Position numbers and translations under genes: made by a program
Notes under the pieces: model-generated
The model's input: only the letters and a program-made list of their open reading frames with translations
What the model was told of the DNA's origin: nothing
Database searches by the model: none
DNA from: a virus
Length of the DNA: 64,000 bases
IMG/VR virus record: IMGVR_UViG_3300035701_000003
Direction: 5' to 3' (one strand)
Shown: one piece after another, positions 2 to 64,000 of the stretch
How the letters are laid out: the number at the start of each line of letters is the position of its first letter
Position numbering within the stretch: the stretch's first letter is position 1

Positions 2-2425
2 TCATTAATATTCTCCTCTTCTGTAAAACAAGCAGCGTCCGATATTCATGATTATTTAGCAGAGAATGTAAGAGATACTGAAGATTTAGATGAAAGAGAT
101 GTACAAAGAATAACAGAAAGAATATTATCACAACCATGGTGTAACTCTTCAAAGGAAAAAGTATTAAAACAAGTAAGAGATTGGATAGGATTAGAAAAAG
201 AATCCTCAGCTGACGAAATACATACGTGGATAAGAGTTAAAAGAGTATTAGATGAAATGGGCGTAGACGAAACTACAGCAGCCAAATTCGTTGAAGATGT
301 CAAAAAGTACTGGCAGGAATATATAGAATTACCTGATGAACAGATATATGATGCTTATAAAGCTTGGAAAGATGAAGAAGGCCCCAGAAAAATGACTGAT
401 GAAGATTGGGACCAAAGATTCGAAAATGATGCTTTCAACAGAGAACAATTTGGTAGCAAAAAAGCTTCCTTAAAATTCTCACAAACAGAAGAAGATTATG
501 ATTTTTATAATGATAATTATAGATTCAATTCTGGAGAAGAGCACGAGTGTGAAGACTGTGGAGCACCAGGAGCTAAATTATATAACACCTTCGGCCAAAA
601 ACTTCAAATAGGAGGTTTTAGTAGTGATTTAGAGTTATGCGATAATTGTCATAAAGAGAGGTTTCCAGAACACTGGCGTTACAAGAAAAAAGCATCTTAC
701 ATATATAAGCCCGGTGAGCAGATAGGTTATCATGGTAGGGAAGGCCGTATAGTTCGAGAAGATAATGGTGGTTACATTGTTTACTTTACGGATACCAACG
801 AAGAACAATGGTTAGATAAAGAGGAATTACTCGAGCAGGAAGGATTAAAAGAACCAGAAAATGAATTTGATAAAGTACTCAAACTAAGAGATAGAGCAAG
901 AGAAAGGAGAGACACAGATATGTCTAAAGAAACAAATTTTACCTTATGGTTTAACAAAAATAAAAATGAAACTTCCTATTGGGAAGGTTATTCTAATTTT
1001 ATTAAAACAGCTGCTCAACATAAACAGTTCAAAGATTGGATGAAAGAGAAGTTCGCAGATGTAGTAATAGAGGACGAACCCGAAACTAAGGATGGGGCTG
1101 CCTATGAATTACCTGATGGAAGTGGTTTTATGACTGGTACCGTTGGAAGTAAACAAGCTTCAGGAGTAGCCCTTAATATATTACCAGACCTCTTTGAAGA
1201 TAAGTTCGCGATGAGTAAGATACCTCCAGAATTAAGATTACTTCGCTCCAATGCTAAGCAAGCTCTTAGTAAAGTAGTAGAGCATATGCAAGTATTAGGA
1301 CGAGAGAGTACCCCAGCCGACTTCCCAATGGAATGGTTTTATAAGGATCAAGGTTATGTAGTTCCAGATAGTATAGGAGAGGTAAGAGCCCAATTACAAG
1401 AGATTATAGATTACGCCAACCGCGCAACTGGTAATAATTTCTATGGTAATATGAAGTCTTCTTTTAAAGTAATATCAAAGAGTGGGTTGCAAGGAGTTGA
1501 AATTATAAGAGAACTAATAGATGGAAAGATAAATAAATATGGTTACATCAATGAAAAGAACCAGTTTGTGGTGCTACCTAATTATAGAGAACTCCGTATA
1601 AACAGTCAATTAAATAGGCCTGATACAGGTGAAACAGTAAAAGTGATCAAATACGTTGATGTTTCGTTAGGTAGCACTGCTAATATGGTAGAGACTCTTA
1701 TGAAGAAGAAAGCAGGCGATGAAGCAGATGATTTAGCCGAAAAAGAGTGGTCTGATAAAGGGGAAGAAGATTGGAGTAGAAAACCCTCAGAAGGATTCAT
1801 ACCTACAAATAGAGGAATGCAGACACCCGACGATATAGTAAGTGATTTAACCTTTTTGAATTATGCTTATAATAGAGATAGATCTCCAGAAATAACTCCA
1901 GAGCGTTGGGCTAAGGTATATGGTCCCAACACAGAAACTATGGAAATGCGTTATCAAAGAGAAAAAGCTTCTGGCAAAACATTTACTAAAAAGGATATAA
2001 ATAAGGCTTTTATAAAATACGCTATTGATGTTAGCGATGAAATACCTCCAATGGGATGGGATGCTAGTACTCCTGGAAAACCAGCTGGGGCAGGAGCACC
2101 CAAGGAACCTATGCAGGGATTACAGGATAAGGATAAAGAACAAGAAGAAAAGAAGAATGTAATTTATGATAGTTCTAGTGATACAGGACCTCAATTCCAA
2201 ACTACTATTAATCCAGCTACAAAAGAGGTTACAGTGAAGTTTATGGATTCCCCTCAAAAGGAAGCTCTTGATGATGCAATGAAGACTCAAATGCAAAGCC
2301 CTCAGCTTCCTACGTTAAATACTACTCCACAGAATAATCAAGGAACACCAGGTACTCCAGGTGGACCGGGAGCAAACGAGGAACCGAATCAGTTTAAGAA
2401 TCAACAAGTACCAGTAAGTTTTTAA
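2..2425 (+). CDS. 5'-truncated large modular acidic protein, putative virion/head-associated; Zn-ribbon and SH3-like segments
   Basis: The frame of ORF 257..2425 is open back to position 2 (SLIFSSSVKQAASD...), so the true start lies upstream of the window. Contains KKASLKFSQ (458..484), CEDC...CDNC, several K-x-A/S motifs and a P/Q/G-rich C-terminus. Confidence 0.75.
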   Translation, partial: SLIFSSSVKQAASDIHDYLAENVRDTEDLDERDVQRITERILSQPWCNSSKEKVLKQVRDWIGLEKESSADEIHTWIRVKRVLDEMGVDETTAAKFVEDVKKYWQEYIELPDEQIYDAYKAWKDEEGPRKMTDEDWDQRFENDAFNREQFGSKKASLKFSQTEEDYDFYNDNYRFNSGEEHECEDCGAPGAKLYNTFGQKLQIGGFSSDLELCDNCHKERFPEHWRYKKKASYIYKPGEQIGYHGREGRIVREDNGGYIVYFTDTNEEQWLDKEELLEQEGLKEPENEFDKVLKLRDRARERRDTDMSKETNFTLWFNKNKNETSYWEGYSNFIKTAAQHKQFKDWMKEKFADVVIEDEPETKDGAAYELPDGSGFMTGTVGSKQASGVALNILPDLFEDKFAMSKIPPELRLLRSNAKQALSKVVEHMQVLGRESTPADFPMEWFYKDQGYVVPDSIGEVRAQLQEIIDYANRATGNNFYGNMKSSFKVISKSGLQGVEIIRELIDGKINKYGYINEKNQFVVLPNYRELRINSQLNRPDTGETVKVIKYVDVSLGSTANMVETLMKKKAGDEADDLAEKEWSDKGEEDWSRKPSEGFIPTNRGMQTPDDIVSDLTFLNYAYNRDRSPEITPERWAKVYGPNTETMEMRYQREKASGKTFTKKDINKAFIKYAIDVSDEIPPMGWDASTPGKPAGAGAPKEPMQGLQDKDKEQEEKKNVIYDSSSDTGPQFQTTINPATKEVTVKFMDSPQKEALDDAMKTQMQSPQLPTLNTTPQNNQGTPGTPGGPGANEEPNQFKNQQVPVSF

Positions 2426-2428
2426 GTT

Positions 2429-2782
2429 ATGAGTAATTGGCGAAAAGTATTAAGTTGGCAAGTACAACCCGAAGCTCCTAAAGATACTAGAGCTTTATTT
2501 AGAGATATATCAATGAGAAAACCAAGTAGCTGGGCGGAAGTAGGGACTTATGATTTTCATCAATTCGATACTTTACATCAACAGGCTCTTTTGGGAAAGC
2601 GTGTAATAGAAGGATATGTAGCAACTCCCTATAGTACTATTACACCACTTTATGATATCTCCGGAAGAACATCTGAATTTATATTACATAATCAAGCAGA
2701 TGATTTTTATTATTATATAAATACCGAAGGTTTCTCTTATGCAAGATATACATTTAGAATATTAAATTTTCCAAACGCGTGA
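2429..2782 (+). CDS. small protein with N-terminal NWRxxLSWQVQPE tag
   Basis: 117-aa ORF starting MSNWRKVLSWQVQPE, 3 nt after the upstream stop. Confidence 0.8.
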   Translation: MSNWRKVLSWQVQPEAPKDTRALFRDISMRKPSSWAEVGTYDFHQFDTLHQQALLGKRVIEGYVATPYSTITPLYDISGRTSEFILHNQADDFYYYINTEGFSYARYTFRILNFPNA

Positions 2783-5647: not shown

Positions 5648-5818
5648 ATGAAACTAGTAAATTTTTATTTCCGCTGTAAGTGCGGGAAATATTTAGCTTT
5701 TCATACTACTGAGGAGATTCAGGGATGCCCAAAATGTATGAGCATCCTTCGCTTACCTAAGGTGTTTATTAACTATCTATTGACACGTGAGAGAGATGGA
5801 AAAGAAGAACTGGCGTGA
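5648..5818 (+). CDS. small zinc-ribbon protein
   Basis: Hand translation of 56 aa: MKLVNFYFRCKCGKYLAFHTTEEIQGCPKCMSIL... (CxC and CxxC). Confidence 0.65.
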   Translation: MKLVNFYFRCKCGKYLAFHTTEEIQGCPKCMSILRLPKVFINYLLTRERDGKEELA

Positions 5819-6068
5819 AATACTGAGTTGGCAGATACAACCCGAAGAATCCTCTCGGAATATTAATAAGATGATAGCTATGAAGGCTTCTCAAGAAATT
5901 ATTGATGATTTGGCTATTATTATTCCCGATAAAGTTCAAAATCAAATAGATCCTTCTCTCGGAGACCAAATTGATAATATAGATGAAAATGTTGTTACTA
6001 AATACATTAAATTATATTTAGGAGCCTACATAAGACATTTAACGCGCGAGGATATTTTTGCCGACTAA
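5796..6068 (+). CDS. small protein with N-terminal NWREILSWQIQPE tag
   Basis: ORF 5787..6068; ATG at 5796 is the likelier start (MEKKNWREILSWQIQPEE). Confidence 0.75.
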   Translation: MEKKNWREILSWQIQPEESSRNINKMIAMKASQEIIDDLAIIIPDKVQNQIDPSLGDQIDNIDENVVTKYIKLYLGAYIRHLTREDIFAD

Positions 6069-6405
6069 CTGGAGACAAATATTAAAATTCGGTTGGTTGA
6101 ACGAAGAAGAGATTCGTAAAAACCAAAAAGAAGAGTATGAGACTAAGACTTGGGAAGAACATGAGATTCCTTTCAGTAGAGAAAAAGGTGAAGAATTGCA
6201 ACGGGCTTTGGCATATGCTACAGAAGGAGCTATTAATTACCTTTTTGAACCTAACGTATTTCACGATAGAGTGCGCATTCTCGGGACATTACAGAATTAT
6301 AAGGAATCTTATATAACAGCATATCAGCATAAAATGAAGCTATATGGTGAATTAGTCGAATTCTATACTAAACTAGTACAAGATTACCCTGTAGAGGAAT
6401 ATTAA
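6058..6405 (+). CDS. small protein with N-terminal NWRQILKFGW tag
   Basis: TTG start, 115 aa, MPTNWRQILKFGW. Confidence 0.75.
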   Translation: MPTNWRQILKFGWLNEEEIRKNQKEEYETKTWEEHEIPFSREKGEELQRALAYATEGAINYLFEPNVFHDRVRILGTLQNYKESYITAYQHKMKLYGELVEFYTKLVQDYPVEEY

Positions 6406-10245: not shown

Positions 10246-10259
10246 ATAAGGAAAGTAAT

Positions 10260-14093: not shown

Positions 14094-14107
14094 AATTAAT
14101 AGAGAAC

Positions 14108-14126
14108 GTGTATTCTACGAATACAC
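14108..14126. promoter_or_regulatory. perfect 8-3-8 palindrome GTGTATTC-TAC-GAATACAC (operator or hairpin)
   Basis: Intergenic between two secreted-protein genes; its left arm matches the CGTGTAT motif found in other intergenic regions. Confidence 0.5.
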
Positions 14127-14159
14127 TTCATAATATTTAAATATAAAGGAGAAAAAAGA

Positions 14160-22040: not shown

Positions 22041-23533
22041 TGAAGAACTGGAGACAAATATTAGGTTGGCAAGTTCAGAATAGTTATACTGTTGAAGAAA
22101 TGATAACGATGTTAGCTCCTCACCAAATATGGAAGGACGCTCGAGACTACTCTTATCTTTTTATGATAGGTGATGTAATTGAAGTTGTATGGAAAGAGAA
22201 GGATTCTGGCGGGGAACCGCGGTATGTTATACAAGAGGCCATATGGGCAAGTTCTCTTCACAGTAGAGTATCTCCTGGTTGTTTCGCTTATCTTTATCTA
22301 GATGCCGGCCCTTTTGAATTATTGAGTGAAGAAGATATAAATAAACTCTCTTGGCAAGTATTCTTAGGAGATATAGACCCTATGGACAGAGGTATTATGG
22401 CTAGTTTACTAACCGCTGACGATGATCATGTAGTAGCTTTATTATGCATACCTTCCGATACTACTATAGATGATATAGCTAAAGATATGATCGATTCGGG
22501 GTTTACTGAAGAAGCTTTTTTGTTTCAAGATATGGTAAAAAGAGCAAAAGGAGTAGCATGGGAGGCTACCGATGAATTCTCTAACGTAATGAGAATAGAG
22601 GAAATTAAAAGATATTATAAAGTACATTATCCCAACGACGAACTAAACTTTATTCCCGACTGGTTGAAGGTTAAAAAGGCTTTTAAGGAGATAGTAGATA
22701 GTTATAACCTTCCTGATAAAGAATCCTCTAAACTATCATGGCAAGATTCGACTTATGGTGGTAAATATGATATTGGTGCTTTAGTATTTGACCCGCTATC
22801 TAAAAGATTTGGTAAGGTTACTTTTGTAGGACCTTTAAGTAAAGTAGAAGGACTAGATAAGGGTAAACAAGTTTATTTAACAAAATATAAAATAAGAAAC
22901 GAGAAAAAAGATATTCCTTCAGAAGATGACCCTACCGTAATGCTTTTGGACTTAAACGTAGGATTCGCCCACTATGAAGGAAATATACAATCTCCCAACG
23001 AATTTATGACTATAGACCCTCCTAAGACTGTTATAAGAGGTTTAACAAGTGGTGTTAAGAAGGTAAAGAAACTGCCAGAGGAAGGGGATTCCCACGAAGA
23101 TATATTCGAAACTTCTTCCCCCAATCATACTTACTTTAAAGACGCTAGACTTTCTTTAGAAGTAGTTGGACAAGGAATATTCAAACTATCATGGCAAATA
23201 CAAGAACCAGTTTTAAAAGTAGGGGATAAAGTAAAGATAATAGCATTTCTTAAAAAATTAAGAGATTTGGATATTGTTTTTTACGCTCGGAATACTGACG
23301 AATTCGATCCAAATACTATTTATGAGGTAGCATCTATAGATACTAGCGAGGTTGGAACGATGGGTATTTATAGTGATAACATGTGGGTAAACATAAGAGA
23401 AAACTCAATGGGGGCTGGTTGGTGGATTCCTTATCATTATTGGCAGGAATTTTTAGAGATAGTAGAATCTAAAGAAGCATCTTTAACACCCGCTGATAAA
23501 GAAGAATGGCTACAAATAATAGAAGGGGGATAA
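22040..23533 (+). CDS. tag-delimited modular protein (four modules)
   Basis: ATG at 22040 overlaps the upstream TAA; MKNWRQILGWQVQ, then INKLSWQ (22337), KESSKLSWQ (22718) and FKLSWQIQEP (23180). Confidence 0.8.
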   Translation: MKNWRQILGWQVQNSYTVEEMITMLAPHQIWKDARDYSYLFMIGDVIEVVWKEKDSGGEPRYVIQEAIWASSLHSRVSPGCFAYLYLDAGPFELLSEEDINKLSWQVFLGDIDPMDRGIMASLLTADDDHVVALLCIPSDTTIDDIAKDMIDSGFTEEAFLFQDMVKRAKGVAWEATDEFSNVMRIEEIKRYYKVHYPNDELNFIPDWLKVKKAFKEIVDSYNLPDKESSKLSWQDSTYGGKYDIGALVFDPLSKRFGKVTFVGPLSKVEGLDKGKQVYLTKYKIRNEKKDIPSEDDPTVMLLDLNVGFAHYEGNIQSPNEFMTIDPPKTVIRGLTSGVKKVKKLPEEGDSHEDIFETSSPNHTYFKDARLSLEVVGQGIFKLSWQIQEPVLKVGDKVKIIAFLKKLRDLDIVFYARNTDEFDPNTIYEVASIDTSEVGTMGIYSDNMWVNIRENSMGAGWWIPYHYWQEFLEIVESKEASLTPADKEEWLQIIEGG

Positions 23534-53400: not shown

Positions 53401-56199
53401 GGTTATAAGATTTACAGTCCTCCTTATATTGACTGGTTTCACTGGATACAAAAGGCCTGGGACGATATAAGATATTTTTTAAAGAACCAAAGAGAAAATA
53501 TAGCCCCTGATATGAATGTTTCTGATCAAGAGTTAGCGAGGGACTGGTTAAAACTATGGCAAGAAGAGAAGCAAGTGCCAATGGATATTCAAAGAGCCGT
53601 TTGGTATCATAGTGTATTTCTAAAGGCTATTCAAATTATGTTCGAAGATAAGGGTTTAGGTGATGTATTAGGTACTGAATATCAAGCACCCCAATCTCCA
53701 GAGGAAAGAACCGAACAGATTTTGAGACCGAATACTGGAGTTAACGAAGATGAAGGAGACATACCCGTTGATAGAGAAGGCAACCCAATACCGAAGGAGG
53801 AAGATATATGGGCAGGTACTAATTATAAACCTTCTAAAGAAGAAGTACCAACTGAAGAAGTTCCCGAAGTAAATACTGATGAACTTTTAGATGAATTACA
53901 TGATGCTATAAGTAAAGGAGATACAGCTAAGGCTGATGAGATAAAAAAGAAATTAAATGGATTACAAAGTAAATCCTCCTTAAAACTAGACGGAAATTAT
54001 GATGATGAAGAAGAGAGAGAAGAAGATTATTTTAGCACTAAAGGGGACATCTCTCATTCTGATGAAAATGCTCTCATGGTAGTTTTGAATACTTACGGTA
54101 AAGACTTAAATATTAAAGATATCCAGAAGGAATTACTTATAAACGGTATTTTAGCAGAGCAATTACTAACCGATATCTTAGAAGAATCTTACCCCGATAC
54201 ATATTTATTAAAATTCTGGAGGGCTTTCCATAAAAAGTATCCGCAATGGGATTATATTTTAAAAAACAGTATGTTTGATAGTGAGGGTAATCAAATACCT
54301 TTTCATAATATAAGAGAATCTTCTCTTAAACTATCTGGGCTTACTCCAGATGATATTTTTTCTGGTTATCCTTTTATATATGATAAAAAAACACATCGGC
54401 TTTATGTAGGTGAATATAACAGCACTCATCAGGAGATGCCTGAGCTATATTCTGGGGAATTAAAAGAATACGGGGTAGGTTTACAGAGACAGGAAGATCT
54501 GCAAGATAACTACAATATGGGAATAAAATACATACAGGGGAGAGTTTCTGGCGGTAAAGACACCGTAGCTTTTTGGGAGCAATCATCTCCTACTGTAGAT
54601 AATAAAGATGATTATACCGATTGTATCTTTCAACTTCAACAAAAGGAAGTAGTAGGTTCAAATCCTTACATATACTTTACAGGAGGTTATAAAAGATCCT
54701 TTAAAGATTTTGTAGAGTTTCCGGCAAGAGAAGCAAGTCTTAAACTCTCTTGGCAAGTACAACCAGAAACTAAAATAGAAGTTGGTGGTATAAAACATAG
54801 AATACTTCAAGTTATTTGGAAGTCTCCGGATCATATAGGTAAGTATATTGATATACAACCTGTTTACGGGCAAGCTTTTCAATACTTCAGTCAATTACAA
54901 GATAAAGGATGTGTAGAGAGAGTAGCGCCTGGTAGGTATGCGCTTACTCTTACGGGTAGAACGATTCTCGAAATTTTAAATGGTAGAAAAGCTTCCTTAA
55001 AGTTTAGTTGGGAAGTACAACCTGAAACATATACTGTATCCCCCGAAGACTGGAATAAGCATTTAGAAGAAACCGTATTGTATTTAACGACAGTGCAGTT
55101 CCGTTCCGAGGCTCTTTTTTGGAGGGTTATGAGAGGAATTGCTTCTACTAATCATACTGTACTTACACCTGAATTACTTTATGCAGGAGATTCTTATAAA
55201 GACGCTAAAAAGTTTGTTAATGAATATGTAAACTATGATTTTTATTTTATATCGAGAGGGGAATACGATTATTTACAGAAAAATAAGAAGCAATCCAGTC
55301 TCGTGTTTAATATAGATAAGAAAGGACAAGAAAATGAGCAAAATAGTGGAAGCCAAACGCCCCAAATCCCCCAAGAAACCCAAATACAATTGGAAGAGAA
55401 GCACCACGAGAAAGCTAATGAAGAAACATCACAGCACCTTCAAAAAACTGTCATAAGTTATCCTACTCTTTATGATATAATAAGGGAGCACGATGATATA
55501 ATACAAGAATTCGGAGGGCTTCAGGGGATATTAGCCGGTGGAGAAAATAGAATAGAAGCAGCTATCGGCAGAATGCAATCCGGTTTTGGTGATCTAGAGT
55601 TCTATGTTAGTGTTTTAGAAAAAGCTGCTGTACTATGCCATTCAATAGTTACGACGCATCCCTTTAATGACGCAAATAAAAGAATTGCTTTTATGTCTGT
55701 AGTACATTTCTTATATGATAACGGGTTTGCTTTGGGGGAAGCGGATACTTTTGGGGATATTATTATACAAGTAGCTGATAACAACGCTGGTTATGAACAT
55801 TTGATTCAATGGTTACAGGCTAATGCTAAAGAAATAGAAAGTACTCAAGGAGAAACTTTAGAGAAACTAACTTGGAAAGTACTCGACCCTCAAGCAGAGG
55901 AAATTGATGTAATTCAAAAACTCTTTCCCGGAGCTAAGTTAATAGTTTTTGATAATATAGATGGTCAAGGAACCTCAGAAGTTAACGTTCTAGTTAAGGA
56001 TTTCTTGAAAAAGTTTCCGGCCGAAACTGATTACTTTTTGGATGATTGGAAAGAAACAGAATATGGAGGATATACCTGGAATATTAGTGATGATGATCGT
56101 ATGTATATATCTACTTTTATTCACGGCCCGAGCGAAGAAAACACAATGTCTAGTCTCATATTAAAAAATACAATATTAGAATTTAAAGAAGGTGAATGA
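47479..56199 (+). CDS. 2906-aa tag-delimited polyvalent protein (wHTH-like, pentapeptide repeat, LRR-like, SH3-like and Doc/Fic modules)
   Basis: TTG start; about 18 linkers between 48958 and 55878; pentapeptide repeats at 48541-48760; HPFNDANKR at 55657-55683. Confidence 0.85.
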   Translation: MDKVFVSKVSALLNNREGRPINEEDIYQYLTSQGYPISSMEDLKIDLHEMYSKGFIYPYQGYWYPTYHSEVCGAANISPDSKNTFRYPAVQYSSLLTNYEKVKPETRDKYKEEWKDKLTKYYDYFKKSHPEYSNFFKWVDQSSPNYYEFIKDAMAIFLQMNMEHNNIKYPGTQYSIPDELTTIEHAMNEAVYRLTTFMKKEHGAKVISPDIYRKAYDNVAELSAEIQSKFILEVISTSPSGTVISADTVKKFTETALKKNLPKEVSPDFFLNVIEGKLSNLKHSKEKGVFLYNTSATTIATYLQDALLKSPEFVSAWNTFMKTKGGFQGKADQITTKVWSGITAPGIDFFKEKGLDLEKVTISNSNLSNCNFTNADLSGTSITNCNLRGSLFKESVFKPSTFTGNDITKMDVDGAVLSKNITWDENKGQPINLVYREVSYDKKDLDNIVKSPQVYSYAFPLSEAEEGDALNLVYALKGYLDSLQILSFKKNNLLKLGWQIQLEFSKFENILKNKNYSYYIDNYTLIINHKGYVDLDALTQLPENIQFNNKGYVNLNSLTQLPENTQFNNKGDVELRSLTQLPENIQFNNEGYVSLDSLTQLPENIQFNNEGYVSLDALTQLPENKYNIFKNEGEVLYNLRNYIWLEFDPRVREGSLKLIKTSSLSDNEITSLKSWLESPENIPDIEAEDLRKWLADKNKSGELTEAGFNRKDINLLFGRASTLTGGPKKPPSEIARDKRNELSQNFAKAYGGKDSIPKTALLGVLTNNEGNLYDWLLDLPDKVTYKDIFNLYHALLSSLKQFHLTSGATTLTRKYEHLPYTTYVTDLSDTERGVSGKGTQFGVALVPIYNLMPSGVAEVAQRAVHEGTTHMYEGLAFSRIAPVIYHEIRSGVKGKIFKKVWAISEMQSDSYQKSGKSEDPDSKEVGDERENLHKEYYKTEAELDKAMKNFRRYTHHWPENLLNAIIELAQKHNVDEIWMPTSKDVVMKTGKNEYTQEAWYKYYDRPAKTFGGKLKNVGADISLDPGSSYSHKRAEWYVIPVKKQTKEGSLNFSSQDPSFNDYDSTRNDFFMYDKDQPSGNDSLDMQQSYYTDLMYLKDTDKEKKERDSLDWTGRENLQLGFGSLKLSWQEQPEERHFYDIYIRTEQGRLLPITTVYAVDKEQALKEGKSSAQRSSIVRRVMNYEENYTFVAIEKKSSSLKFSNDIYFDSTPSEDTTPEERNFTNPLPDKKLRRTDPKKYDRRHDWYSQSPDSEVSNRYDNSIPLEASLKLGWTFQPPVIAKDLYESGEWLKYIPRSMKPAKSRKYIVGEPVYITIGGNKPVYPDVFYFVGSCNSPYTGYYILVNDKGEIRRSNNIKKVEEVNPKLIEKLRKKKTSSLKLGWRTTPELGTLDALKNFISTMEPNVRYKFPNYPYEGIELEYEDPDDEGIMLYTWTLQRNWDYIQMPGPVFPLHGNMVVFWRKRQSAEKSLYKELKWFYDETTGELSERWKNKKTSSLHFGWKMPENINEIAKMLVAPENWYIRTFVNKKTRALILYLDEKFIEKYEKGYDRMRAMEYSPLPKGTLDSAVNSIKEQLDNYGMTNYTVKVDKDFPHAIRFYFPIERTSLKTPWKDVMKEIKEKYDRYVMWVQNNIGGYSLLISLTPRSPKLKEIVDLLRDRTGIEPEVVSPGGPPHYGPSTRIYITTPITSSLKLGWQLFNDIEVGDTVEVIKEISDGSYRLHIGTRGEVDNIQTSTPSFNRMGITVYMFRDRDVQRPEHWYVFSDEVKKVTESSLHFSWQVQPDVNNLSGIDLARALSTDGWRYVYDSGARHFYLENDNNHYIIFLPYDFEKDESGIREEMGLVADPYKKWMIQVGNEFKGTIDMEYVPTIAEAIRIIGEWKQKYIRKNDPRRASLKFSDLQDYPWDEIKHNLEHHFDYIINENRKKFPDVEEYVTDEMMAQFAYKTFFMEYNIPGVWRGDPEFVDEVKRIIKDDLGYKIYSPPYIDWFHWIQKAWDDIRYFLKNQRENIAPDMNVSDQELARDWLKLWQEEKQVPMDIQRAVWYHSVFLKAIQIMFEDKGLGDVLGTEYQAPQSPEERTEQILRPNTGVNEDEGDIPVDREGNPIPKEEDIWAGTNYKPSKEEVPTEEVPEVNTDELLDELHDAISKGDTAKADEIKKKLNGLQSKSSLKLDGNYDDEEEREEDYFSTKGDISHSDENALMVVLNTYGKDLNIKDIQKELLINGILAEQLLTDILEESYPDTYLLKFWRAFHKKYPQWDYILKNSMFDSEGNQIPFHNIRESSLKLSGLTPDDIFSGYPFIYDKKTHRLYVGEYNSTHQEMPELYSGELKEYGVGLQRQEDLQDNYNMGIKYIQGRVSGGKDTVAFWEQSSPTVDNKDDYTDCIFQLQQKEVVGSNPYIYFTGGYKRSFKDFVEFPAREASLKLSWQVQPETKIEVGGIKHRILQVIWKSPDHIGKYIDIQPVYGQAFQYFSQLQDKGCVERVAPGRYALTLTGRTILEILNGRKASLKFSWEVQPETYTVSPEDWNKHLEETVLYLTTVQFRSEALFWRVMRGIASTNHTVLTPELLYAGDSYKDAKKFVNEYVNYDFYFISRGEYDYLQKNKKQSSLVFNIDKKGQENEQNSGSQTPQIPQETQIQLEEKHHEKANEETSQHLQKTVISYPTLYDIIREHDDIIQEFGGLQGILAGGENRIEAAIGRMQSGFGDLEFYVSVLEKAAVLCHSIVTTHPFNDANKRIAFMSVVHFLYDNGFALGEADTFGDIIIQVADNNAGYEHLIQWLQANAKEIESTQGETLEKLTWKVLDPQAEEIDVIQKLFPGAKLIVFDNIDGQGTSEVNVLVKDFLKKFPAETDYFLDDWKETEYGGYTWNISDDDRMYISTFIHGPSEENTMSSLILKNTILEFKEGE
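49066..49350 (+). repeat. about 4.7 x 60-bp in-frame LRR-like tandem repeats (LTQLPENIQFNN.G.V.L..)
   Basis: Exact 60-nt periodicity at 49081, 49141, 49201, 49261 and 49321. Confidence 0.95.
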
Positions 56200-56201
56200 A
56201 T

Positions 56202-58196
56202 ATGGCAAAACCACGAATAACCGGCGGACCACCGAAAATTATATTGCCAGGCGCGGAGAGTAATTTCAAACAAGTTATAGCGTCTCAAAATGAAGGGACC
56301 CCGGGAAATAAATTTGCTAACGCTGCTAAGGCCCCTGTAAGAGGTTACGGTAATACTAATATTTCGCGAGACTCTATTCTCAAAACAGCTTCTTATTTAG
56401 ATGTAACTAGAAATGCCCCTTTATTTAATGATCCGCGTTACACCAGTAGTACCCTTTCTATTCCTACAGATAATAGAACTTTGCATGGTTTATATCGTTT
56501 CTTCACGGAAACTGACCCTATCGTAGGAGCCTCTTTAAAGATGCATTCGGAGTTACCGCTGGCTAATGTTGCCCTTGGTACTTGTGAGGACGAGGGTATT
56601 CAAAGACATTTCGATGCTATGTGGGATAGAATTAACGGTACTAAGTTATTAACAGATATGGTATCTGAGTATTATGAAATTGGAGATTGCTTCCCCTTCG
56701 GCGCGTTTAATGAAACCGATTATATGTGGGATCAATTTGCTATTTTGAACCCCGATTATGTTAAGATAGAATCTACCTGGTTGAATCAAAATCCTTTAAT
56801 TAAACTTATTCCAGACGAGAACTTAAAGAAAATAGTACAAACGAGAAGTCCAAGATTTATTTATGATCAACTTCCGCAAGAAATAGTCCGTTACGTATTA
56901 TTTAATAGAGAGATTCCTTTAGACCCTAATAATGTATTTCATATTTCTCACGCAAAGAGACCTTATGAATTAAGAGGCAGGTCTTTAATAAAGAGAATTC
57001 TCAAAACGTTAATGTTAGAAGATAGATTTAATCAAGCCAATTTTGCATTAGCTACTAGGCACGCAGTTCCTTTGACTGTAGTTAAGGTCGGCGATCCTAC
57101 TACTGGTTGGACGCCCAATGAAGAAGAATTAAACGCTGTGAGAGATTTGTTCGCCGCGTGGGAGTTGGACCCAAATTTTAGCATCTTCTACCACTATGGG
57201 ATTGACGTTCAATTTTACGGCTCTAATGGAAGGGCGCTCCCAGTAGGCCCGGAACTAGATAGAATATATAGATTAAAGTTTATTGGATTACAAGTTCACG
57301 AACAGTTACTAGCTGGCGGCGGTGGTAGTTACTCTCAAGCTTATATTAATTTGGAAGTACAAAGACAAAGATATTTAAATTTACAATTAAAACTCGAACA
57401 ATTTTTACACGAAGGTTTATTTAAACCTGTTGCCGACCTTTGCGGTTTCTATAGAGTCCATAATAGTACTACTTCTGGACATGGTGGTGTTAAGAAATAC
57501 TCTTACGGTAAAGAAGATGATTTCCAAAAGAGATTATTAAAGCAGTTTACTACTTTAAGAGATTTAAAAGATAACGAGGAATTTTTAAGATACGTCAGAA
57601 GTAAGTTAGCTGAGTATGAAGAGAATACTAATAAACAAGAAAGAGAATATGTATTTCCTAAGATTGATTGGGGGGCAATGTCTGCAGCTAGTGATGAGAA
57701 TCTAAAGAATTATGTTAAATGGTTATCGAAAGAAAGACCTTATTTAATAGATGATGCTACCTTGGCTAGACTAGCTAAATTAGATAGAGATACTCAAGAA
57801 GATGCTTATATAGAAGATTTAAGAAGAGCTAAGACTAGATTTACAGAAGTTAATAAAGAAGGTTTATTACCTTTTGCACAATCAAGAACTGGTAAAGGCG
57901 GTGGAGACTTTGGAGGAGATGTTGGAATGCCTTTGGATATGGGCGGGATGCCCGCTGGGGGAGGACCTGGGGCTGGAGGACTTGGAGAAGGTGAAGTTCC
58001 TAATGTTCCTGCCGGGGCCGGTGGACCTCCCGAGACAGCCGGTGGTCAAGTAGCACCTGCTGGAACAGAAGCTTCTATAAAAGAAAGTACCGTTTTAGAT
58101 GATAGGTTCATTACTAGTGAAAATAAATCATTACTAAAAGAAAAAGAGAACTGGAGTAAAGCTATTGCTGAAGCTATTATTATAAAACCAGAATAG
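56202..58196 (+). CDS. probable portal protein
   Basis: DPIVGASLKMH, LNPDYVKI and FH......RG.S...R motifs typical of portal folds; G/P-rich C-terminus; directly upstream of the protease. ORF from 56196. Confidence 0.7.
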   Translation: MAKPRITGGPPKIILPGAESNFKQVIASQNEGTPGNKFANAAKAPVRGYGNTNISRDSILKTASYLDVTRNAPLFNDPRYTSSTLSIPTDNRTLHGLYRFFTETDPIVGASLKMHSELPLANVALGTCEDEGIQRHFDAMWDRINGTKLLTDMVSEYYEIGDCFPFGAFNETDYMWDQFAILNPDYVKIESTWLNQNPLIKLIPDENLKKIVQTRSPRFIYDQLPQEIVRYVLFNREIPLDPNNVFHISHAKRPYELRGRSLIKRILKTLMLEDRFNQANFALATRHAVPLTVVKVGDPTTGWTPNEEELNAVRDLFAAWELDPNFSIFYHYGIDVQFYGSNGRALPVGPELDRIYRLKFIGLQVHEQLLAGGGGSYSQAYINLEVQRQRYLNLQLKLEQFLHEGLFKPVADLCGFYRVHNSTTSGHGGVKKYSYGKEDDFQKRLLKQFTTLRDLKDNEEFLRYVRSKLAEYEENTNKQEREYVFPKIDWGAMSAASDENLKNYVKWLSKERPYLIDDATLARLAKLDRDTQEDAYIEDLRRAKTRFTEVNKEGLLPFAQSRTGKGGGDFGGDVGMPLDMGGMPAGGGPGAGGLGEGEVPNVPAGAGGPPETAGGQVAPAGTEASIKESTVLDDRFITSENKSLLKEKENWSKAIAEAIIIKPE

Positions 58197-58215: not shown

Positions 58216-59226
58216 ATGTTAATAAAACAAGCCATACAAGAAGTTAGAGCTATCCCTTTGAATTCTATATACTCTAAACAGGAGAAAAGAGTAGTTCCTA
58301 TAAATACAAATGAGTTTCGATATCTTCGATTTAGAGCTATTGGTAATATGGAGGTATCCGGTTTTAATGGAAATCTTGATGGTTTTCCTTATGAGTACTT
58401 TGAAGATGATGAACCCGGGTATGGCTATAAATCTTTTAGAGGGAAGAGAGCCCATCATGAACACAATAGTAATCTTGGAGTAGTAGGTAGTATAGGAGAT
58501 TTACCAGATGCTTATTTAAATAAATTTAATTACCCAGAAGATGTACCTGAAAAGAAATGGGCTTCCTTATTAAATAAAGTATCTGATTCTAAGAGAATAG
58601 CTATTTTACAGATGCCCGGTCAAAAGTTAGGGGATATAGAAGTGTTGATGCGTATAGATACTACTCTTTTGAAAAGTTCTTCTTTAGATAAAAAAGTAAA
58701 ACAAGCTCTCGAAAGAATAGTTAGGATGATAGACACCGGCCAGAGTTTAAGTTGTTCTATGGGTACTAACGTTCAGTACAGTGTTTGCAGCGCTTGTGGT
58801 AATGAGGCGAGATTCGCATCGGATTATTGCAACCACCTTTCTAAGAGAAAAGGCGCTTTAACAGTAGTTACTGCTAATGAATTGAGAGACCTTTTAGATA
58901 AAGGAATACTAAGACCTGAGTGGTTAAAACATATTACTACTTCTAAATACGATGCTAAGGATGTAGTGGAAGGAATTAGTAATAGAGGTGTTCCCGTAAA
59001 GAATGGAGAATTAAATCATAAACTATCCTTCTTTGAATTATCTATTGTTGGAATCCCCGCATTTCTCGATGCAAAAATGTTAGAGAAACTGGCAAAGAAA
59101 GCCGAAGGCGATAGAAAGACTTATTTAGATTTATTGCGAAAAGAAATAGGAGATGATAACTTATTAGATATTTATGGGTTGTTACAAGATGATGGTATAA
59201 TTTCAAGTCAATGTCAAGTATACTAA
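58216..59226 (+). CDS. probable prohead (capsid maturation) protease with Zn-finger insertion
   Basis: AAGGAG RBS; N.N.DGF, H.EH, SMG..V..S.CS.CGN...C.HL and FFELS.V..PA...A. Confidence 0.7.
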   Translation: MLIKQAIQEVRAIPLNSIYSKQEKRVVPINTNEFRYLRFRAIGNMEVSGFNGNLDGFPYEYFEDDEPGYGYKSFRGKRAHHEHNSNLGVVGSIGDLPDAYLNKFNYPEDVPEKKWASLLNKVSDSKRIAILQMPGQKLGDIEVLMRIDTTLLKSSSLDKKVKQALERIVRMIDTGQSLSCSMGTNVQYSVCSACGNEARFASDYCNHLSKRKGALTVVTANELRDLLDKGILRPEWLKHITTSKYDAKDVVEGISNRGVPVKNGELNHKLSFFELSIVGIPAFLDAKMLEKLAKKAEGDRKTYLDLLRKEIGDDNLLDIYGLLQDDGIISSQCQVY

Positions 59227-59227
59227 A

Positions 59228-59551
59228 ATGGAAAAGACGTCTTTAAGTTTTGAAGATTACTTAAATACAGATATTTCTGATGTTATTTATAAAGATCACA
59301 AGTATAATTTATCTAATAAAACTGTTAATATTATTGTTACTAGTCCTTTTGACGTAGAAGACGATACAAATAACCTAATATCTCTAGAAGCTGGTGATAG
59401 ACTAATTATAACAGGATTACGGCCGGATTTTTATGAGATGAAATACAATGAAATTACAGTTTATCAACATTATAAAATAGTAGATAAAAATACTGTACTA
59501 AGTAAGCAAATAGAAGGTAATTGGAGAGAGGTGTTACAATGTTTAAAATGA
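59228..59551 (+). CDS. hypothetical protein (SH3-like segment)
   Basis: 107 aa; SLEAGDRLII; C-terminal GNWREVL. Confidence 0.65.
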   Translation: MEKTSLSFEDYLNTDISDVIYKDHKYNLSNKTVNIIVTSPFDVEDDTNNLISLEAGDRLIITGLRPDFYEMKYNEITVYQHYKIVDKNTVLSKQIEGNWREVLQCLK

Positions 59552-60393
59552 CTATTAAAAAAATCGGAAACCTTTATCAAATAGATGATAATGAGACTCC
59601 TATAGACTCTGCGACCCTCAGAAACACATTGGCATCTCTTACTAATTCTGATGATCCTAAGGTAAGTAAAATAATGGATGATATTGATGAAAAAGAAGAG
59701 ACTTCTTTAGAAATTCAAGGTAGCAAAGGAGTGGTAGTTGATTTATATGAAGTAGATTATCAATCAGCAGACCCTATGAAAGAAACTCAAAATTTAGCGA
59801 AGAGTTTAAATGAAAAAAGAGATTTTGTAACTCAATATTTGTTTCCGGATAGTACTACTGATGATGTTTTAGTGGGATTAAGGCAAGATGTTTTAAAAGG
59901 ACAGGATCAATCCCAACCAACTAGAGGTCCCCAGGAACAAGAACCTGCGAGACTTTCCAATTTAGAAAGTATGAGTTCTCTTTTTCAACTTTCTTACGCC
60001 AGAGACTTAAGTGAGGACCAGAAACAAGATATCTTAGAAACACAGACTATTTCTTCAAATCTACTCTTTAGTAATCTTAAACTACAGCAGGATAATTGGG
60101 TTAGACTAAAAGCTAAAAGTAACAAGTTAAATATAGAAGCCCTCATTGGAACCGATACTTTCAGATATTTAATATCTTTACAAAAAGAAAGAGATGTGGA
60201 ACATTACAGTATAGATTATGCTTCTTTAGTTAAATTAGGAGTTAATCCTTTGGATTTAATTGATGTAGTAGAAGCGTGCCAGTTGGGGAGTCCTAGTAAA
60301 GTAGATGAAGATACTACATTAGATCAATTAATAAATGCATGCCAAGAACCGATAATACAAATATATGGCAGAAAGGTAAAGAGAAGTGGATAA
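59539..60393 (+). CDS. hypothetical acidic protein
   Basis: ORF from 59521; ATG at 59539 is the likelier start. Confidence 0.7.
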   Translation: MFKMTIKKIGNLYQIDDNETPIDSATLRNTLASLTNSDDPKVSKIMDDIDEKEETSLEIQGSKGVVVDLYEVDYQSADPMKETQNLAKSLNEKRDFVTQYLFPDSTTDDVLVGLRQDVLKGQDQSQPTRGPQEQEPARLSNLESMSSLFQLSYARDLSEDQKQDILETQTISSNLLFSNLKLQQDNWVRLKAKSNKLNIEALIGTDTFRYLISLQKERDVEHYSIDYASLVKLGVNPLDLIDVVEACQLGSPSKVDEDTTLDQLINACQEPIIQIYGRKVKRSG

Positions 60394-62452
60394 GTTAGAA
60401 GGTACAATTTTAGCAGATTACGACACTATTTACTTTGACCTCGATAAGACACTATGGGAGTGTTATACTTCTCAAGGTACTAGTATCGGCGCTTATGATA
60501 TGACTCCTCCTTTTGAATTAAAGACTGGAGTTATGATTAAGGATATAGAAGGAAATTTTTGTAAACTTCAAGACGGTATTAGAACTATATTACGGTTGCT
60601 AGATGAAAGAAACACTAATATGGGTACTTTAAGTAGCGGAGAGGCAGAGAACGTAACCTCAGGCGCTCAACCTTCTGTTTTACTTCTTAAGAAATTTGAT
60701 TTATATGGTTACTTTAATATGGGCGTTGTTTGTAAAAGAGGAATCGATAAAAGAGAATACGCTCTTCCTTTTGGAAAGACTTTACTTATAGACGACGACG
60801 ACGAAAATTTAGATAGCGTAAAAGAAAACGAATTAGTAGATATTTTAGATAGGAAGGCTTTTGAAGATTGGGATCAATTACTACAAAAGAAAACAAGTAA
60901 TTTAGTTTTAGGTTTATATTCTTTTTTAACTAAAAGAGCCCAAAAAGAATTTGAGTTTCGTTCTGGGGCTAGTATATTATTAGACTTATATAAAGCTGAA
61001 CTTGATTATACCCCGGCTAAAAGGAAACAAGGCGGCGAAGAAGAAGTATCCGATGAAGAAAACGTAAGATTTTTACAAAGTAAAAGTAATATACCAAGGT
61101 TATTTGAGGAGGCTGTTCAATATTTAAGAAATATGTTAAATGATACTATAGAATATAGTTCTAAAAGATCCGACTATATCACGGATAGCCAACTAGTAAT
61201 AACTACCTTCAGTGAAGCTTTGCGAGTATTAAACGAAACTTCTAAATATATTTATAATGCAGATCACTGGCCTCAAGTTTTTATAGTTATAGATAACGTA
61301 ATAAATCTCATGCATACTGATATGACTTTTATAGAGCATATATTATTATCTGATGAATCTACTTTAAGTAAATCTTATGAAGAACATATTGGAGCTGAAG
61401 CTATTACTTTCGAAGATAAAGATGACTTTGGATATTATCTTAATAAATTACAAGAAGAGTGGAATGAGTTTAAAGATTTTCTTATCCAGCAAGGTAAGAG
61501 TCTCCAGTTTACTTCCGAATCTAGTAAGTTATCTTGGCAAGAACATTTAGACCCGGAAAAGATTTATAATGGGGATATTGAGATGCCAGACCTTTTTTGG
61601 GAAGATATTCCTGATAAAGTACGGTGGTATTGTGAGGGTAGGGGTATATCTTATAGAGAAATGCCAGAAGCTATTAAGACTAGTTTTGATACTGCCCTAT
61701 TAAAGTGGGAAGCACGTTGGGAAAAGGAAAAGAAAAAACTTTCTTGGCAAACGCAACCCGAAGGCATGACAGAGGAGCAATTTTGGCAGATAATGGGCGC
61801 TAGTGATACACCGGCTAATGTTAGAAAGAGATTAAGAATGCTTACCCCCGAGCAATTGATTGTATATCAGGATATGTTTAATATTTTATTTACTAAAATG
61901 TTACCAGTTGTCCAGGATGAATGGATGGAAGCAAGTTCTGATAGTTTAGATTATTCTATATTTAATGTTATATATTCAGGGAAAGATGACTATTATTATG
62001 TTCTTGCTCATCCACGGTATATAAACAACGTAGGTGAATATGAAGAGGTTTCTTACTTTGCAGGAGAAATTTATGAGGAAAAAACTGGGGATGATAAGGC
62101 TTTTTGGGATGGTATTAAACCTTATGGAAGTTTGAAACTTGGTTGGCAAATACAACCCGAAGAACAAAATCCAAATTTATCTTTTCAGTATGATTTAATT
62201 AAAAAAGCTATAGAGAAGTTAGACTTCCTTGATTTTGGAGAACAGGATTTAGTACAGGATGCTATTTATGAAGCTAAAGAATACTTCGAAATGATAGGTA
62301 GTAATTACAATCTAAAAAATTTAAATCAAACTATGAATTTACTTGATAGAGTATACCAAATGTGCGGCATACCTTCTTTCCCTACAACTGAAGAAACTAG
62401 AAATCTAAGCAAAGCTCAAACTATAATAGATACTTTGATGGATAAGTTATAA
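60386..62452 (+). CDS. tag-delimited polyvalent protein: MDP-1-like HAD phosphatase and DUF4240-like module
   Basis: YFDLDKTLW (DxDxT, 60437), LSSG, LIDDDDEN; linkers at 61517, 61733 and 62126; MTEEQFWQIM...LTPEQL...SGKDDY. Confidence 0.75.
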   Translation: MDKLEGTILADYDTIYFDLDKTLWECYTSQGTSIGAYDMTPPFELKTGVMIKDIEGNFCKLQDGIRTILRLLDERNTNMGTLSSGEAENVTSGAQPSVLLLKKFDLYGYFNMGVVCKRGIDKREYALPFGKTLLIDDDDENLDSVKENELVDILDRKAFEDWDQLLQKKTSNLVLGLYSFLTKRAQKEFEFRSGASILLDLYKAELDYTPAKRKQGGEEEVSDEENVRFLQSKSNIPRLFEEAVQYLRNMLNDTIEYSSKRSDYITDSQLVITTFSEALRVLNETSKYIYNADHWPQVFIVIDNVINLMHTDMTFIEHILLSDESTLSKSYEEHIGAEAITFEDKDDFGYYLNKLQEEWNEFKDFLIQQGKSLQFTSESSKLSWQEHLDPEKIYNGDIEMPDLFWEDIPDKVRWYCEGRGISYREMPEAIKTSFDTALLKWEARWEKEKKKLSWQTQPEGMTEEQFWQIMGASDTPANVRKRLRMLTPEQLIVYQDMFNILFTKMLPVVQDEWMEASSDSLDYSIFNVIYSGKDDYYYVLAHPRYINNVGEYEEVSYFAGEIYEEKTGDDKAFWDGIKPYGSLKLGWQIQPEEQNPNLSFQYDLIKKAIEKLDFLDFGEQDLVQDAIYEAKEYFEMIGSNYNLKNLNQTMNLLDRVYQMCGIPSFPTTEETRNLSKAQTIIDTLMDKL

Positions 62453-62454
62453 TT

Positions 62455-64000
62455 ATGGGAAATTTCTGGAAAATATTTTCGCTTGAATTACCTAAAGGAG
62501 AAGACTATTCTGATTATTACGATTCTATAGATGTTTCACCTCCTGAAACAGAAAATTGGAGTCCTACTGAAAGAAAAAGAAAAATAAACCCTCTGAAGTT
62601 TCGTTCTGAAGATGATGATAATATGATGTTTTTTGAAAAAGGTTTACATCAAACTATAAACAACCCCGAATCAGAACGTCCTCTTACACCTTACGGCGGA
62701 TTAAACTTTTCTACTCCTGATTACTGGATATCTCCTACTGGAAATAGTATACTATCTACTCCCGATCATATCAGAAGTATTTTTAAATATCTAGGACAGA
62801 TAGATTCCACACTACTCGATAATTTTAAAGAAGGCAAAGACGTAGAAGAAATTATTCAAAAGGTTATTGCTAAAGGTTGGATTAGAGTTATAACAGATAA
62901 CATGGTAGCACACTTTGAAGTTTCTAGGTTTACACCTCGAGAGAAACATCTTATCGAAGATTTTTTAGTTGCTAAAACCATAGATAAATTAGCAATATAT
63001 ACTACCGGTGGTATAAAGATTTTTGAAGGCACTGCAGGAGAGTTTTTTGATTTTGATAAATTCAGTAGTTTGAAACTAGGATGGAGAGTACCTCAAGTAG
63101 GAGATGAAATATATAATAACATAACCGGCGAGATCGGAAGACTTGTTGCTATAGGAACCCCTTCTGAATTACGGAACTGGGCCGCGTGGAATCTAAAGAA
63201 TGACTTTCATTTTCATATATCCGACGTGATAGACGGGGCTTTAGTAAGCGAAGATAAGCAATATTGTATAGTTAGATCTTTAGGAGGAAAGTACTATGAC
63301 CTTTTACCTTTAGAAGAAGTAGACTTAAATAAATTCTCCTGGCAAATAAGTTACGAAAATAAACTAGAAGAAATAGACGATCTTTGTCACTACATAACTG
63401 ACGATAGCGGTTATACTTGGGAGCATGGAATTACTTTAAAAGATTTAAGAAGAGTATGGCCGGAATTTCTTAACGAATATAATATTAATTTCTTATATTC
63501 TAGGGGAGGAATGTTTGTATTATATGAAGATATTGAGAAATCTATTAAAGAGAACTGGAAAAAACTCTCCTGGCAAGTGCAGGAGGAATTCAGACTTTTA
63601 TCTCCTCAAGAATTACAGAGATCTTATTATAAATTAAGAGGGCTCGAGGATACTTTTAGTTATAATATAAATCCCACTCCCGGTAATCCTATTTTAAAAA
63701 TCTTACTTAGTTTAACTCCAACTAGTGGATGGTTTAATACGAATGCTTATGTATTTGAAAAAAGTGGTAAATATTTTGAAGTTGTGTTATATAAACCCGA
63801 CGCGCGAATTACTATTCATAATGATCAATCCCGGGAACTCGAGAATTATTTACGTGCTATAAGCACTACTGGTTCTTTTAAATTCAGTAAAAAAGAACCA
63901 AGTGACGCTCAATTAGATGCAGGTAACTATAAGAAGAAATATGTAAAGAAAGATGGTTTAGATATTTCAATTGAAAATGAAAAAGGTTCTACAAGGTCTG
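62455..64000 (+). CDS. 3'-truncated tag-delimited polyvalent protein ending in an InPase-like domain
   Basis: Not in the ORF track; hand translation is open from ATG 62455 to the window end. Linkers at 63064, 63325, 63553 and 63871; YWISPTG...GWIRV module; AQLDAGNYKK...GLDISIENEKGSTRS. Confidence 0.8.
   Translation, partial: MGNFWKIFSLELPKGEDYSDYYDSIDVSPPETENWSPTERKRKINPLKFRSEDDDNMMFFEKGLHQTINNPESERPLTPYGGLNFSTPDYWISPTGNSILSTPDHIRSIFKYLGQIDSTLLDNFKEGKDVEEIIQKVIAKGWIRVITDNMVAHFEVSRFTPREKHLIEDFLVAKTIDKLAIYTTGGIKIFEGTAGEFFDFDKFSSLKLGWRVPQVGDEIYNNITGEIGRLVAIGTPSELRNWAAWNLKNDFHFHISDVIDGALVSEDKQYCIVRSLGGKYYDLLPLEEVDLNKFSWQISYENKLEEIDDLCHYITDDSGYTWEHGITLKDLRRVWPEFLNEYNINFLYSRGGMFVLYEDIEKSIKENWKKLSWQVQEEFRLLSPQELQRSYYKLRGLEDTFSYNINPTPGNPILKILLSLTPTSGWFNTNAYVFEKSGKYFEVVLYKPDARITIHNDQSRELENYLRAISTTGSFKFSKKEPSDAQLDAGNYKKKYVKKDGLDISIENEKGSTRS

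Follow-up and report, generated by a model that had tools for sequence, protein, structure and literature searches.

A large uncultured phage makes repeated use of a short peptide tag, with the consensus Ser-Leu-Lys-Leu-Ser-Trp-Gln-x-Gln-Pro-Glu, which lies at the module borders of very long proteins and also heads small stand-alone proteins. We see about an even chance that this tag is a signal for head cargo similar to the capsid-targeting sequence (CTS) of T4, reused as polyprotein punctuation and cut by a gp21-type protease.

In the window, that is the whole stretch of 64,000 nucleotides analysed, a position-weight scan identified 25 strong copies of the tag ([S/A]-S-L-K-[LF]-[SG]-W-Q-x-Q-P-E), located in six open reading frames (22013-23533, 24797-27001, 45239-47476, 47479-56199, 60386-62452 and 62455-63999; these and the other tagged, portal, protease and scaffold-like genes given below are on the + strand) and in none of the non-coding frames. 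The iterated PSSM gave 25 matches with scores of 19.8-43.3 and none from 10 to 19.8, while 20 protein shuffles gave 0-1 matches. The core K[LF][SG]W, taken exactly, has 22 matches, all of them in two + frames, and none in the remaining four. There are also about seven N-terminal leader forms (M..NWRxILSWQxQPE; sites 2429, 5796, 6061, 22037, 24809 and 27823, with a degenerate leader at 62455) and about six Trp-less half-tags (SSLKFS), the Trp-less or degenerate forms being found at 458, 45785, 46856, 49426, 51064, 53149 and 54319. All forms together amount to ~38 copies, spread over 11 ORFs. The original prediction came close to this with about 40 copies in about 12 genes, and all 17 positions that it listed (17/17) translate in frame to the peptide claimed. 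Since the two halves of the tag are also found separately, its earlier description as bipartite is a fair one. The Ser and Leu codons vary freely and synonymously from copy to copy, and thus the repeat is one of peptide and not of DNA, with selection acting on the peptide. The terminase (28210-30723) and the accessory block (30889-45114) contain no copy, as had been noticed before, and neither do the protease, portal and scaffold-like genes of the window.

The longest tagged protein is a polyprotein of 2906 amino acids (47479..56199), with 11 strong tags (48952, 50842, 51274, 51601, 51958, 52540, 52789, 54319, 54733, 54991 and 55855) and three Trp-less tags besides degenerate ones (49426, 51064 and 53149); site 54319 counts both among its strong tags and among the Trp-less/degenerate forms. 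It contains pentapeptide repeats (aa 356-412) and a Fic/Doc-like domain (aa 2663-2786), with a tag at aa 2796, 9 aa beyond the domain end. The preceding 745-aa protein (45239..47476) is composed of a module of 20-aa repeats, tags at 45785 (degenerate), 46295, 46607 and 46856 (Trp-less) and, downstream of the last tag, a methyltransferase (Methyltransf_25, aa 596-678). In the 688-aa protein (60386..62452), a HAD phosphatase-like and helical module is followed by a tag (61517), a second module, a tag (61727), DUF4240, a tag (62126) and a C-terminal module; the full DUF4240 profile (1-129) covers aa 461-565, and the flanking tags end at aa 459 and start at aa 581. The next ORF (62455..63999; degenerate leader at 62455, tags at 63064, 63322 and 63553) runs off the window and reaches at least 940 aa, judged from the strain variant L002; its InPase domain begins at aa 485. 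Two further tagged proteins are a 506-aa one (22013..23533; leader 22037-22078, tags at 22334, 22721 and 23174) and a 734-aa one (24797..27001; leader/tag 24809-24853, tags at 25160 and 25478), in which DUF6166 (aa 251-337, E 1e-24) starts about 10 aa past a tag.

Every recognisable domain is free of tags, and the tags flank the domain models without overlap. Homology breakpoints with related phages follow the same pattern, 25 of 54 internal HSP ends falling at a tag, where 7.3 ± 3.5 would be expected (0/5000 randomisations), so that both domain envelopes and breakpoints back the earlier claim that the tag delimits modules. P0255 consists of module A, a tag and module D; in the window, modules B and C stand between A and D, again with a tag at each junction. 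P0261 and P0262 end shortly before a tag. In L002, a population or strain variant, a CAA-to-TAA change inside tag 2 of 60386..62452 splits the gene and the next ORF begins right after QPEG, which indicates that the modules tolerate separation. It had been proposed to check by AlphaFold whether tags lie in disordered linkers: tag 1 of 60386..62452 is coil with pLDDT below 50, right behind the last helix of module A, in agreement with this placement, but of the three tags tested only this one lay in a part modelled with confidence, and for the other two the AF2 model gave no information.

The same motif serves as N-terminal leader of small stand-alone proteins in the window, in L006/L010 and in L011. 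A 117-aa protein (2429..2782) begins with the leader MSNWRKVLSWQVQPE and a small protein of about 90 aa (5796..6065) with the leader MEKKNWREILSWQIQPE; a 115-aa protein (6058..6405) has a leader-like N-terminus (..TNWRQILKFGWLNEEE) and in a 123-aa protein (27823..28194) the tag LKILSWQVQ forms residues 13-21. A Trp-less half-tag, KKASLKFSQTEE (458..493), is present within the ORF ending at 2425. Phosphatase and repeat modules are found both inside polyproteins and as leader-headed genes. A passive linker would be useless at an N-terminus, and therefore the use as leader counts in favour of a portable signal. Some of the leader-bearing small genes are adjoined by fibre-like and not by head genes, which speaks against a signal for head cargo.

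The tagged genes cluster around the portal, protease and scaffold-like genes. The portal protein (56196..58196; phrog_16240 portal, E 3e-57) has 100 homologues; the uncultured contigs that encode them measure up to 194 kb. The product of 58216..59226, previously called a protease and here taken as the prohead (capsid maturation) protease and candidate reader and cutter of the tag, is predicted to fold like T4 gp21 and herpesvirus assemblin, which bears out that assignment: the AF2 model (pLDDT 87) has as best VIA-align matches T4 gp21 (5jbl_A; Z 9.2, rmsd 2.9, 132 aligned) and the VZV protease (Z 8.9), followed by the KSHV and HCMV proteases (Z 6.1), while Foldseek alone gave no significant match and the match to phrog_18299 (head maturation protease) is weak. 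Residues H83 and S181 (SMG) of this serine protease, its candidate catalytic His and Ser, are invariant in 34 homologues. The serine is followed by a CxxC...CxH insert that may bind a metal; H207, which might otherwise be considered as third member of the triad, is nearly invariant but lies within this cluster. The protease gene directly follows the portal gene in the window, L004 and L005, with one or two genes between them in L006 and L007. A conserved gene after the protease (59539..60393), with no tag and no family match, is possibly a scaffold gene, judging by its position; homologous N-termini come after the protease in L010 and L011. The capsid gene of the phage falls outside the window.

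With some drift, the tag is common to at least three related uncultured phages. Its Trp and Lys are strictly conserved, and an acidic residue is present 1-5 positions past the Trp in all three lineages, the Glu being at +5 (Q-P-E) in the window, at +1/+2 in L005 and at +2 in L006. The protease of L006, which uses the tag, is 56% identical to that of the window; the protease of L007 is nearly as close (53%), but L007 has only three or four Trp-less half-tags (e.g., SALQFNAS and SLKFGAS), so that full tag and protease are not strictly coupled. The one readable capsid protein of a tag-using relative (L010:16620-17552) carries no tag, which implies that the tag is not a general site of the protease.

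From these observations we infer the following route. A tag that heads a small protein, or that precedes each module of a polyprotein, would draw the protein into the assembling prohead. There the protease (58216-59226) would cut at the tag or immediately behind it, the bond after its Glu being the most probable site. Leaders would thereby be removed and the proteins of 500-2900 aa broken down into numerous small effectors (Doc/Fic, methyltransferase, phosphatase, InPase, pentapeptide repeats, DUF4240 and DUF6166), which would leave the virion together with the DNA. Modules would be readily exchanged between genes and phages because every one of them has the same junction. The cut site suggested originally, basic-x-A/S, found no support: characterised proteases of this fold, such as those of T4, phiKZ, 201phi2-1 and SPN3US, cut after Glu (PMC5694885, PMC10052503), and a cut would thus be expected after the Glu of the tag. 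A cut after the Glu of Q-P-E would have Pro at P2, which would be unusual. If the tag does direct loading and release, it would account for how large uncultured phages bring into the cell, along with their DNA, dozens of small effectors directed against the host or its defences, and for the quick reshuffling of this arsenal. It would also widen the capsid-targeting idea of T4 from single small proteins to polyproteins of 2900 residues, offer a short defined peptide for tests of how cargo is loaded into capsids and of what the protease recognises in a clade without cultured member and, together with the gp21-type protease, provide a simple marker by which virion cargo could be predicted from metagenomic phage genomes.

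The literature searched contained no description of this tag system, but several known systems share parts of it. The T4 internal proteins IPI, IPII and IPIII and Alt are likewise unrelated small proteins with only a short N-terminal targeting leader in common, which is removed by gp21 (PMC3012670, PMC5694885), and in both cases the leader is closed by an acidic residue, the head module encodes a protease of gp21/assemblin fold and the cargo resembles host-takeover or anti-defence effectors. However, the sequences are unrelated (LSWQxQPE here, MKTYQEFIAE-type in T4), T4 leaders end in the hydrophobic-x-Glu cleavage motif of their prohead protease while the tag follows no (L/I)-x-E rule, and the present putative signal is also repeated within single chains, with about 14 copies at most. 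The phages phiKZ, 201phi2-1 and SPN3US (S80 proteases gp175 and gp245, site [S/A/G]-x-E) are also large, with many packaged proteins, as would be the case here, and a gp21-related protease; theirs cuts after Glu and several times per substrate, both of which we would expect here too (PMC10052503, PMC5694885). In that group the cuts mostly take off long N-terminal propeptides, and the motif recognised is a minimal one of three residues, whereas here a conserved tag of 12-15 residues with an invariant Trp stands between unrelated functional modules. The polyvalent proteins of phages and conjugative elements (Iyer, Burroughs, Anand, de Souza and Aravind, 2017; PMC5512222) are giant multi-domain proteins encoded near virion genes, with much domain shuffling, predicted to be packaged and injected, and combine InPase, methyltransferase, Fic-like, 2H-phosphoesterase and other effector domains. 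The genes round the portal share their defining feature of two to fifteen unrelated effector-type domains per chain in a late/virion context, with pentapeptide, Fic/Doc, methyltransferase, HAD phosphatase, DUF4240, DUF6166 and InPase domains. Processing of polyvalent proteins was proposed to depend on a frequent, though not obligatory, zincin-like MPTase within the chain, and no conserved inter-domain tag was described (PMC5512222); in the present proteins no MPTase was found by Pfam or PHROGs and the junction itself is the conserved element.

A bolder form of the load-and-cut proposal, to which we give a modest chance, well short of even, is that the tag is a self-contained and transferable code for loading and release, which docks directly in the prohead, possibly to the HK97-fold shell as in encapsulins, before the module is cut free. 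Encapsulin cargo-loading peptides are short terminal peptides with a G-S-L-K/R-like core that send unrelated cargo inside an HK97-fold shell, and they are usually C-terminal, single and uncleaved. The (G/S)-S-L-K of the tag presumably resembles this core. With such a code the phage clade would evolve its injected arsenal by shuffling cassettes at one universal junction, and the tag would be a natural programmable grammar of protein delivery, undescribed for phages.

The tag might instead be an addressing or docking signal only, binding a scaffold-like protein, the portal or the inner face of the HK97-fold shell, with the polyproteins staying uncut and leaving the head as beads on a string. We regard this as unlikely, even if the alternating hydrophobic pattern of the tag (L-x-L-x-W-x-[VI]) suits a docking β-strand, the position of the Glu is variable and several tags per chain would give avidity. 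The N4 virion RNA polymerase is packaged unprocessed (PMC5512222), and both the capsid protein of a relative and the scaffold-like gene of the window are without tag, although one would expect a site of general use by the protease to be present in them. Nevertheless, for docking one tag per chain would suffice, yet nearly every module is preceded by one; a clear N-terminal tag is absent from four of the polyproteins, which counts against the load-and-cut proposal as well; and both the gp21-type protease gene beside the cargo genes and the tolerated separation at the tag in L002 argue for cutting. The tag might also be a cleavage site for another protease, either a host enzyme (Prp-type, as borrowed by phages of Firmicutes) or a hidden peptidase module in the polyproteins, the role suggested for MPTase domains in polyvalent proteins; the loose coupling of tag and prohead protease seen in L007 would fit this. 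The L27/Prp motif MLxx(D/N)LQ(F/L)F'A(S/H)KK (PMC9405229) bears a loose likeness to the first half of the tag (S-L-[KQ]-F-x-[AS], L-K-L-S-W-Q) and a closer one to the half-tags of L007, but the full tag shares L-K-L-x-hydrophobic-Q with the Prp site and not its F-F-A core. Most modules are unannotated and might hide a peptidase, but Pfam and PHROGs gave no match to Prp, MPTase or other peptidase families in the ORFs tested; we consider this alternative quite improbable.

We give still less weight, as very improbable, to the tag being a junction kept mainly for cassette exchange, comparable to the VENN or Rhs junction motifs of polymorphic toxins, or for domain capping, with no dedicated reader. 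The homology breakpoints at tags, the module order that varies between phages and the module copies that are 76-91% identical in DNA among three polyproteins would fit such a junction. However, the synonymous variation of the tag codons leaves little DNA identity for recombination, and the strict conservation of Trp and Lys, together with the use of the tag to head proteins that have a single module, argues for a reader at the protein level.

Every position at which the original prediction had placed the peptide [S/A]-S-L-K-[LF]-[SG]-W-Q-x-Q-P-E (the tag) was found to encode it on translation. There are 22 occurrences of the core K[LF][SG]W in two forward frames and none in the other four frames of the window, and an iterated weight matrix retrieved 25 strong tag sites, spread over six ORFs, which scored 19.8–43.3 with none at 10–19.8 (shuffled proteins gave 0–1). 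The serine codons of the tag vary among copies (TCT, TCC, TCA and AGT), as do those of leucine (TTA, TTG, CTA, CTC and CTT), and the repeat is thus kept at the peptide level; a DNA-level repeat or recombination site was rejected for the same reason. We also noticed a leader form, M-(x)n-N-W-R-x-[IV]-L-S-W-Q-x-Q-P-E, heading small proteins (at 2429, 5796, 6061 and 27823) and tagged proteins (at 22037 and 24809), a Trp-less half-tag, S-S-L-K-F-S (at 458, 46856, 51064, 53149 and 54319), and decayed half-tag copies (at 45785 and 49426), all on the plus strand. Strong, leader and Trp-less forms together amount to about 38 copies in 11 ORFs, in line with the 40 or so predicted. Only two homologues of the leader protein 2429–2782 were found, too few for comparing the conservation of leader and body.

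The window is a single coding array on the plus strand, with 31–38% G+C. Its phage recurs at 99.5–100% identity in JGI metagenomes and SRA runs, three of each; blastn gave no cultured-phage relative, and an IMG/VR exact-match search with the window end gave no match. As predicted, there are no tag copies in the large terminase (28210–30723, +), which contains an intein (Pfam Intein_splicing, aa 151–308, E = 1e-21), or in the accessory block (30889–45114, +), which includes a dNMP kinase, and none were found in the portal of the head block (56196–58196, +; phrog_16240, E = 3e-57), the protease or the post-protease gene. Homologues of the portal number about 100 and lie on uncultured contigs as long as 194 kb; inteins or LAGLIDADG domains also occur in many portal homologues of the clade and in the protease of L005, a related locus. 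After the portal, the head block continues on the plus strand with the protease ORF (58216–59226), a 107-aa gene and a conserved scaffold-like gene of about 284 aa (59539–60393). The 107-aa gene has the C-terminus ..GNWREVLQCLK (59516–59551), like the leader start N-W-R-x-[IV]-L; a frameshift fusing this ORF (end ..NWREVL) to the next gene was rejected, since the other frame holds no tag continuation. Four consecutive fibre-like paralogues, each about 1280 aa long (6421–22040, +), gave weak phage-tail-repeat and YadA-head-repeat matches, and the first of them has a tag-like C-terminus, ..VLFSWQIWKRD.

The proposal that tags sit at domain boundaries agrees with the placement of the DUF4240, DUF6166 and Doc/Fic domains and with alignment breakpoints. 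In the 688-aa protein encoded by ORF 60386–62452, the whole DUF4240 profile (1–129) falls on aa 461–565, between tags that end at aa 459 and start at aa 581; DUF6166 starts about 10 residues downstream of a tag, and, in the giant polyprotein (47479–56199), the Doc/Fic domain (phrog_577, profile 6–127 of 128) stops nine residues short of the tag at aa 2796. The AF2 model of the 688-aa protein has a folded first module (module A, aa 1–370, pLDDT 70–90). The expectation that tags lie in disordered linkers was borne out here for tag 1 only (aa 372–393), which is coil with pLDDT <50, tags 2 and 3 being in a region (aa 449–688) modelled at pLDDT 23–45. Homologues align along module A, and divergence sets in precisely at the tag: P0255 combines module A, one tag and the last module of the window protein, P0256–P0259 carry different modules after module A, and P0261 and P0262 end just before the tag. 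When all tagged ORFs were compared with related phages by BLASTP, 25 of 54 internal alignment ends fell at −12 to +18 residues from a tag, against 7.3 ± 3.5 under random tag placement (25 was reached in 0 of 5000 randomisations). The idea that the tag is an edge strand conserved in a single repeated domain was rejected, as the folds of the flanking domains are unrelated.

The protease ORF gave a confident AF2 model (pLDDT 87), whose nearest structures by VIA-align are T4 gp21 (5jbl_A, Z 9.2, 132 residues aligned at rmsd 2.9) and VZV assemblin (Z 8.9); the KSHV and HCMV proteases come next. Foldseek against the PDB gave no significant match, and phmmer and profile searches of PDB sequences gave none. 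His83 and Ser181 are kept in 34/34 homologues, and an invariant CxxC...C-x-H cluster right after the presumed catalytic serine (aa 191–207) may be a metal-binding insert; we know of no such insert in T4 gp21.

Tags of varying form were identified in related uncultured phages: S-S-L-K-[LV]-[SA]-W-E-E in L005/L011 (portal identity 67%), D-L-K-L-S-W-I-P in L004 (67%), and K-L-S-W-[KQN]-E in L006/L010 (59%; 29% G+C), where it occurs in polyproteins and as N-terminal leader of at least six small genes. L007 (61%; 55% G+C) has only Trp-less forms (SALQFNA, SLKFGA and SALKFAT). Since its protease and that of L006 are equally similar to the window's, this comparison of sequences shows that full tag and protease are not obligatorily coupled. 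Tagged proteins of L005, L006 and L011 include modules annotated as Tad6, DMP19, Imm5-like, 2',5' RNA ligase (2H) and InPase, and these annotations suggest that the cargo is largely anti-defence. No tag is present in the more distant L008 and L009, where the protease carries long fused extensions rich in Glu and Lys; in the distant fusions (P0112–P0121 and L008:17047–20943) the C-terminal extension measures about 1000 aa, with no repeated tag and no match to the relative's capsid protein. In L008 the fusion gene is located two genes upstream of an ORF that resembles a capsid protein, judged solely by a common ATWEIFSPxxIRL motif.

Polyvalent phage proteins were described by Iyer et al., who proposed processing by an MPTase and described no conserved junction tag (PMC5512222), and no description of such inter-module tags was found in the literature searched; the distinguishing features are the Trp-centred tag and its double role as leader and punctuation. 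The closest precedent is T4, in which diverse internal proteins have just a capsid-targeting sequence in common; it directs them to the scaffolding core, after which gp21 removes it (PMC3012670, PMC5694885). The window phage resembles T4 in that unrelated proteins share a leader, the head block encodes a protease of the gp21 fold, and an acidic residue ends the tag; unlike T4, it also reuses the signal between modules. Because these T4 ingredients are present, we favour, by analogy, reading the tag as a putative load-and-cut signal. The proteases of T4, phiKZ, 201phi2-1 and SPN3US alike cut after glutamate (PMC5694885, PMC10052503), and cleavage would most likely occur after the tag's glutamate, rather than at the basic-x-A/S site originally predicted.

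Three observations run counter to load-and-cut: the Glu–Trp spacing varies across lineages; the capsid protein of the tag-using L006/L010 (L010:16620–17552), identified by phrog_2522 (E = 7e-49), carries no tag; and L007 pairs a similar protease with Trp-less forms only. Alternatively, the tag could be a docking signal on polyproteins that stay uncleaved, or the cleavage site of another protease; as to the latter, the L27 motif of Prp resembles the tag only loosely (PMC9405229), and no Prp or MPTase was found in the tested window ORFs. A transglutaminase Lys/Gln cross-link motif was rejected, since the Gln positions are Glu, Lys or Asn in relatives, as was a 2A-like or ribosome-arrest peptide, since relatives lack the proline and tags occur at extreme N-termini. 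The tag could also be a junction retained for cassette exchange, and docking, another protease and a cassette junction might act in combination.

An LRR-like module of 20-residue repeats (LTQLPENIQFNNKGYVxLxS) lies behind a tag in three polyproteins, with DNA identity of 76–91% (window 45800–46310 and 48969–49452, and, beyond the window end, L002:14758–15069). This module also occurs in free-standing genes: the leader precedes it in L006, and in L004 it stands at the start of the gene with no leader. In L002, a metagenome-derived strain that shares 99.9% identity with the window, a CAA-to-TAA change within a tag stops the gene at KLSWQT and the next ORF has its Met start directly after QPEG, so that the 688-aa gene is split into genes of 456 and 228 aa (L002:11500–11600, corresponding to window 61727–61780).
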